Of a stretch of 639 nt of DNA, positions 1-639 are shown piece after piece. The stretch is from Escherichia coli (GTDB lineage Bacteria > Pseudomonadota > Gammaproteobacteria > Enterobacterales > Enterobacteriaceae). The notes beneath the pieces are model-generated. The model worked only from the letters and a program-made list of their open reading frames with translations, had not been told where the DNA came from and did no database searches. Each line of letters opens with the position of its first letter. Within the stretch, counting starts at the first letter, position 1. The stretch is taken from the NCBI RefSeq assembly GCF_003334405.1, contig NZ_QOWM01000060.1; one strand, 5' to 3'. The translations under genes were made by a program, and so were the position numbers.

Positions 1-639
1 GACCGAAAGGAGACTGCCACGCATAATTTCTTCAGCCCTTTCCATTCAAACGTGAAATCAATAAGTTCATCAGGGACATCGCAAACAATATGAAGACGGA
101 TTTCTTCTCTGCCGTGACTCTTTTCACTCATTGCGTAACTGTCATGCGCTGGATTATTTAATTCTTTCAGCGGAAATTTTTCCTCAAAGGCTTTATTTAG
201 CCGCCCCTGGTTTCCTTTTACCGCGAATAAATAATCACCTCCCTGTTTTTGTATCTTCTCTGCAATATCTTTCTGGCAACCCATCGCATCAGTTGTGATG
301 ATTTTTCCTTTAATATCCAGCATGTTAAGAAGTTCTGGGATAGCTGTAATCTCATTAGATTTCTCATCCGTCTTGATCTGTCCGATGACCAGACTGTGCA
401 TTGTTGAGAACGCACTAATGACATGAATCGCTCCCCTGCGGCGACTCTTGTCATAAGAGTGCCGGAGCGTTTTTCCATCAATTGCAATGACGTCTTTATC
501 ATCTGAAGAATGGCAGTCACGCATCCAGTTAATAAAGCACTCGTGAAATTTTGCAGGACTGATACAGGATACAACTCTGGCAATGGTATCGTGAACAGGA
601 ATACCATTTTCAAAATCACCATATTGCTTCAAAAAATCG
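1..639 (-). CDS. ISAs1-family (H-repeat-associated) DDE transposase, internal fragment, 5' and 3' partial; complete codons span 638..3 and both termini lie outside the window
   Basis: Seen in sequence: manual translation of the reverse complement gives 212 consecutive sense codons with no stop, from GAT (Asp) at 638..636 to CGG (Arg) at 5..3. The other two minus-strand frames are interrupted. The protein is not low-complexity and carries motifs I recognise from ISAs1/IS4-like transposases: IAIDGKTL (Asp at 477..479), ITTDAMG (Asp at 288..290) and AVKGNQ (207..218). From memory it closely resembles the E. coli H-repeat (H-rpt) protein group (YhhI/YdcC/YbfL/YbfD-like), but I cannot assign a specific paralog or confirm identity without a database search. 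Confidence 0.85.
1..639 (-). mobile_element. Interior of an ISAs1-family insertion sequence (H-rpt-like element); terminal inverted repeats and target-site duplications not in window
   Basis: Inferred from the transposase CDS filling the window. ISAs1-family elements are single-ORF insertion sequences, so the window necessarily sits inside the element. GC is about 42% by manual count (266 of 639), which is AT-rich compared with a typical enterobacterial chromosome and consistent with acquired mobile DNA. Confidence 0.7.

Follow-up and report, generated by a model that had tools for sequence, protein, structure and literature searches.

A 639-base fragment almost certainly internal to the Escherichia coli ISEc1/ISEc5 transposase gene, and the open reading frame listed in its place

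Which of two overlapping frames on the minus strand is the gene at this locus, and to what element does that gene belong? The window (the whole stretch of DNA analysed here) is 639 bases long, with 41.6% G+C, and had been listed with one complete open reading frame (ORF), encoding 134 amino acids. The first-pass annotation claimed that this ORF was the by-product of a different and unterminated frame, one that encodes the core of an ISAs1-family transposase and that the ORF list had missed. Our conclusion is that the window is, almost certainly, an internal piece of the E. coli ISEc1/ISEc5 H-repeat transposase gene and that the 134-aa ORF is most probably accidental. The features on which the argument draws are collected in Table 1.

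Table 1. Features of the window, with coordinates counted from its first base
Feature	Coordinates	Strand	Remarks
Transposase gene fragment	3..638	(-)	Start and stop outside the window; residues 56-267 of 378; ISEc1/ISEc5 (yhhI/ydcC)
134-aa ORF, ATG to stop	218..622	(-)	+1 frame relative to the transposase; non-coding by-product in the best-supported reading; sole complete ORF listed over the gene
DDE_Tnp_1_assoc (PF13808), C-terminal half	522..638	(-)	Window residues 1-39; Pfam 4.4e-10; model 50-88 of 88
DDE_Tnp_1 (PF01609), N-terminal ~60%	108..500	(-)	Window residues 47-177; Pfam 2e-18; model 3-126 of 200
D109 codon GAT, motif AIDGKT	477..479	(-)	Presumed first catalytic aspartate; invariant in five-protein alignment
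D172 codon GAT, motif DAMGCQ	288..290	(-)	Presumed second catalytic aspartate; invariant in five-protein alignment

Translation of the window yielded 212 stop-free codons in the minus-strand frame 638..3, open throughout as had been claimed, and the coordinates given in the first-pass annotation were all correct. A six-frame count found 6 to 25 stops apiece in the remaining five frames, where the longest open run was 136 codons. At the composition of the window, stops are expected at a rate of 0.0665 per codon, which gives any single frame a probability of ~5e-7 of running through 212 codons without one. In 3000 mononucleotide shuffles of the window, the longest open run in any frame never got to 212 codons (maximum 194; mean longest run 76). 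The absence of so long a frame from the ORF list has a simple cause: the list was mechanical and left out ORFs running off the ends of the source. The ORF that was listed lies in a frame other than that of the transposase, since 638-622 = 16; as the earlier reading had it, the two differ, the ORF occupying the +1 frame and beginning at nucleotide 182 of the coding sequence (CDS). An Rfam scan (E <= 1) for structured RNA in the window gave no match.

The 212-aa product was assigned to the ISAs1 family by its match to the NCBIfam model NF033564 (ISAs1 family transposase), against which it scored 261.7 bits (E = 8.3e-78; model positions 28-240 of 314) where the curated cut-off is 70 bits. The two Pfam matches that had been predicted, DDE_Tnp_1 and DDE_Tnp_1_assoc, were both found, with the E-values given in Table 1. 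Their order in the product, DDE_Tnp_1_assoc and then DDE_Tnp_1, is the ISAs1 architecture, the edge of the window cutting the first of the two domains. The proposed ISAs1-family transposase core was thus upheld by the family model, and further by the identity of the window with annotated ISEc1 and ISEc5 transposase genes. Two other assignments were tried and rejected: membership in the IS4 family, for which the NF033592 score was 18.9 bits, its cut-off being 115, and IS1634, whose NCBIfam family model scored far under its cut-off. The product of 3-638 (-) also matched phrog_16731, a family of phage proteins whose function is unknown (E = 2.5e-105); ISAs1-type transposases therefore also occur in the collections of phage genomes from which PHROGs was built.

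Identity at the DNA level was 100% over all 639 bases with two annotated genes, yhhI ('ISAs1-like element ISEc1 family transposase') and ydcC ('ISEc5 family transposase'), as annotated in K-12 and in many further complete E. coli genomes. The window corresponds to positions 5001-5639 of the yhhI locus (L001), and its peptide equals the internal stretch of the annotated 378-aa YhhI given in Table 1, read in the annotated frame. In a K-12-type genome the yhhI match lies within a 1137-nt CDS adjoining yhhH and rhsB; in another K-12 derivative the ydcC match has two pseudogenes as neighbours, one of them a degenerate ISAs1 copy and the other encoding an RHS core domain. Because the two copies are identical across the window, it fits both loci equally well. 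Of 5426 complete E. coli genomes, 5343 have matches to the window (median 5 per genome), for a total of 24143 places, nearly all of them chromosomal and 23 on plasmids. Nothing counts against the ISEc1/ISEc5 identification, and nothing in the finding is new, the gene being long known and nearly ubiquitous in E. coli.

The yhhI and ydcC copies of K-12 were also compared over the whole element (L001 versus L002, 4657-5947). They are identical over ~930 bp, including all of the window; they differ at two sites near the 3' end of the element and at roughly a dozen others grouped within its 5' 300 bp. This mosaic suggests gene conversion between the copies.

The ends of the element were defined by aligning first the yhhI locus with that of ydcC and afterwards nine copies lying in different contexts (L001, L002, L007, L009-L014). 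Homology was lost sharply at both ends of a 1291-bp unit (L001 4657-5947), within which the window occupies approximately positions 309-947. One end of the element reads CAGGG(C/A)AAGATTACGAAAG..., or in a longer reading CAGGG(C/A)AAGATTACGAAAGCC, and the opposite end finishes ...GATCTTTCCCTG, also given as ...ATCTTTCCCTG. The terminal inverted repeats, which were read from the genome copies and lie outside the window, begin CAGGG(A/C)AAGAT; they are imperfect, and a generic inverted-repeat search around the gene missed them. The 1137-nt CDS has its stop 10 nt from one end of the element and its start 144 nt inside the other. The genome copies thus follow the compact ISAs1 plan of a single transposase gene with short terminal inverted repeats.

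Target-site duplications were sought by reading the flanks of the nine copies by eye in the alignments, and no direct repeat was visible at any of them; such duplications could have been lost because the insertions are old or because copies have recombined with one another. Transposition activity of the H-repeat (H-rpt) has not been observed, and it is on account of the H-rpt that ISfinder lists such regions as insertion sequences (PMC3032704). The absence of visible duplications beside CAGGG...CCCTG ends fits both old insertions or recombination and this reported lack of transposition. Beyond the H-rpt statement, the literature on ISEc1 activity came down to a passing remark in a mobilome preprint, that in K-12 ISAs1 may give rise to circular DNA only rarely; all other matches to 'ISEc1' were prefix matches to different names. 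Since transposition of the H-repeat is reportedly unobserved and no target-site duplications are visible at the nine copies, its present mobility is unproven.

The surroundings of the copies vary. A second ISAs1 copy, partial or degenerate, was found directly beside an intact one at L011 (~1648-1690), L002 (5889-7033) and L013 (1606-2039), and in FCI48 a new CAGGGAAAGATTACGAAAG end begins ~25 nt past the end of the first element. In other E. coli strains, the flanks of the element (L010, L012, L008) carry type VI secretion genes (VgrG, PAAR) and not classical rhs loci, which is consistent with an association of the element with toxin-delivery gene clusters.

Any open stretch of 134 codons invites the question of whether it is itself a real gene, either replacing the transposase frame or overlapping it in the +1 frame. 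Its length would favour a gene: the open stretch of 136 codons exceeds expectation for the +1 frame, where the shuffle mean was 53-60, and in that frame the shuffling of synonymous codons reproduced it in a fraction of only ~0.001 of trials and the shuffling of codon order in 0.0005. When the longest stretch over all five alternate frames was considered, however, 0.05 of the synonymous-codon and 0.14 of the codon-order shuffles reached 136 codons; the length is unusual for its own frame and marginal across all the alternate frames. The ORF is open in all nine of the E. coli copies compared, and the ISAs12 and ISKpn31 relatives have open +1 stretches of 105 and 90 codons in the roughly corresponding region, but the stretch is only 43 codons long in the Leclercia relative and likewise in that from Nostoc (43 codons), so that two of the four distant relatives lack the ORF. 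The alternate products of ISEc1 and ISAs12 have 12 of 30 residues in common (21.6 bits), a likeness that is explicable by common nucleotides under a conserved transposase motif. Furthermore, the 134-aa product, a match for which had been named beforehand as the result that would speak for this ORF instead, matched nothing in NCBIfam, Pfam (E <= 10), PHROGs or PDB sequences (E <= 1).

The substitutions among copies also bear on this question. With K-12 yhhI as the reference, nine E. coli copies diverging by up to 4% were compared; 66 of their 94 variable sites fall at third codon positions of the transposase, as do 18 of the 26 that lie within the alternate ORF. Within the ORF region, synonymous and nonsynonymous substitutions in the transposase frame numbered 11:4 in E300010, 8:4 in R8, 7:3 in SCU485, 4:3 in FCI48, 3:1 in KSC207 and 2:1 in CLSC36, and are thus mostly synonymous; counted in the +1 frame, the same six diverged copies gave 0:15, 0:12, 0:10, 0:7, 0:4 and 0:3, without one synonymous change. 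Strain CV261 has a single substitution in the region, which changes an amino acid of the transposase but is silent in the +1 frame, and ydcC has zero substitutions there relative to yhhI. The substitutions among the copies show purifying selection on the transposase protein. On the combined grounds of library searches, length shuffles, conservation and substitution pattern, the alternate ORF was rejected as a coding gene; a real gene at 218..622 is already largely refuted, and we would give it next to no probability. Scarcely credible, too, is the more specific proposal that the +1 ORF is translated as an overlapping gene, with a possible role in regulating transposition, and that the ISEc1 lineage has kept it whole while ISAs12 and ISKpn31 have kept it in part. 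The best-supported reading, though not a proven one, is that of the first-pass annotation, in which the ORF arises as a by-product of the gene for the transposase; the substitution pattern supports it.

A transposase gene need not be a working one, and the H-repeat copy that supplied the window could instead have decayed into a non-functional pseudogene or relic. Degenerate ISAs1 pseudogenes do adjoin intact copies (beside K-12 ydcC, in KSC207, and in strain 5132), and decay would agree with the reportedly unobserved transposition of the H-repeat (PMC3032704) and with the lack of visible target-site duplications at the nine copies. The KSC207 copy has an internal stop in its transposase gene, at a place elsewhere than in the window. 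The window itself, however, contains neither a stop nor a frameshift and matches, at 100% identity, copies whose annotation is that of an intact 378-aa gene, and the purifying selection on the protein likewise argues against a relic. We consider an origin in a decayed copy quite unlikely, and keep to the reading of the window as an internal piece of the ISEc1/ISEc5 transposase gene.

The conserved acidic residues of the transposase were located by aligning YhhI with ISAs1-family proteins of a Leclercia plasmid, Aeromonas (ISAs12), Klebsiella (ISKpn31) and Nostoc. In addition to the two aspartates of Table 1, a glutamate, E306, is invariant in this alignment, within the motif HWxxEN (HW..EN..HW.LD). 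It falls past residue 267, and so beyond the window, and was located in a full-length copy whose DNA equals that of the window over 639 bases. Together, D109, D172 and E306 are presumed to be the DDE triad, an assignment drawn from the DDE_Tnp_1 profile match and from what is generally known of DDE transposases. Sequence comparison detected no relative with a solved structure, so the catalytic role of these three residues rests on analogy.

The picture of the locus is as follows: the gene reads from right to left, running past both ends of the window, and is the sole gene of the 1291-bp H-repeat that is found adjacent to Rhs elements. Its product is an ISAs1-family DDE transposase, of which the window encodes the end of DDE_Tnp_1_assoc and the opening portion of the catalytic domain. 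By analogy, the transposase may bind the CAGGG(A/C)AAGAT inverted repeats and may catalyse metal-dependent DNA cleavage and strand transfer; the basis for expecting metal-dependent DDE chemistry is the DDE_Tnp_1 profile common to this product and IS4-family/Tn5-type transposases. The 134-aa ORF would be no part of this scheme, the +1 frame being probably open there by accident.

The biological weight of the finding is small, and its lesson is a practical one alone, that ORF callers working from start to stop mis-annotate edge-cut fragments. The first-pass annotation had warned that an ATG-to-stop caller would pick the wrong frame on an edge-truncated fragment, and this is what occurred here: only the 134-aa ORF was listed and the transposase frame was missed. 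Because callers that depend on both a start and a stop miss genes cut by an edge, short contigs and reads need partial-gene calling or a translated homology search.

Among known systems, the IS4-family and Tn5-type DDE transposases have the DDE_Tnp_1 catalytic domain profile in common with the window product, which falls below the NF033592 cut-off and so is no member of that family. Other ISAs1 elements (ISAs12, ISKpn31, and the Leclercia and Nostoc plasmid copies) are closer. Their proteins, of 377-394 aa, have the same domain architecture as YhhI and the same conserved motifs, including HW..EN..HW.LD and the invariant D109, D172 and E306; they differ in having merely 44-50% protein identity with YhhI, and in being carried on plasmids and not beside chromosomal Rhs genes. 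Closest of all are ISEc1 and ISEc5, the H-repeat (H-rpt) of Rhs elements, with yhhI, ydcC and their paralogues. The window is without the start, the stop, E306 and the inverted repeats of that element; in sequence there is no difference between them, and with the same DNA, the same frame and the same peptide, the window is this element.
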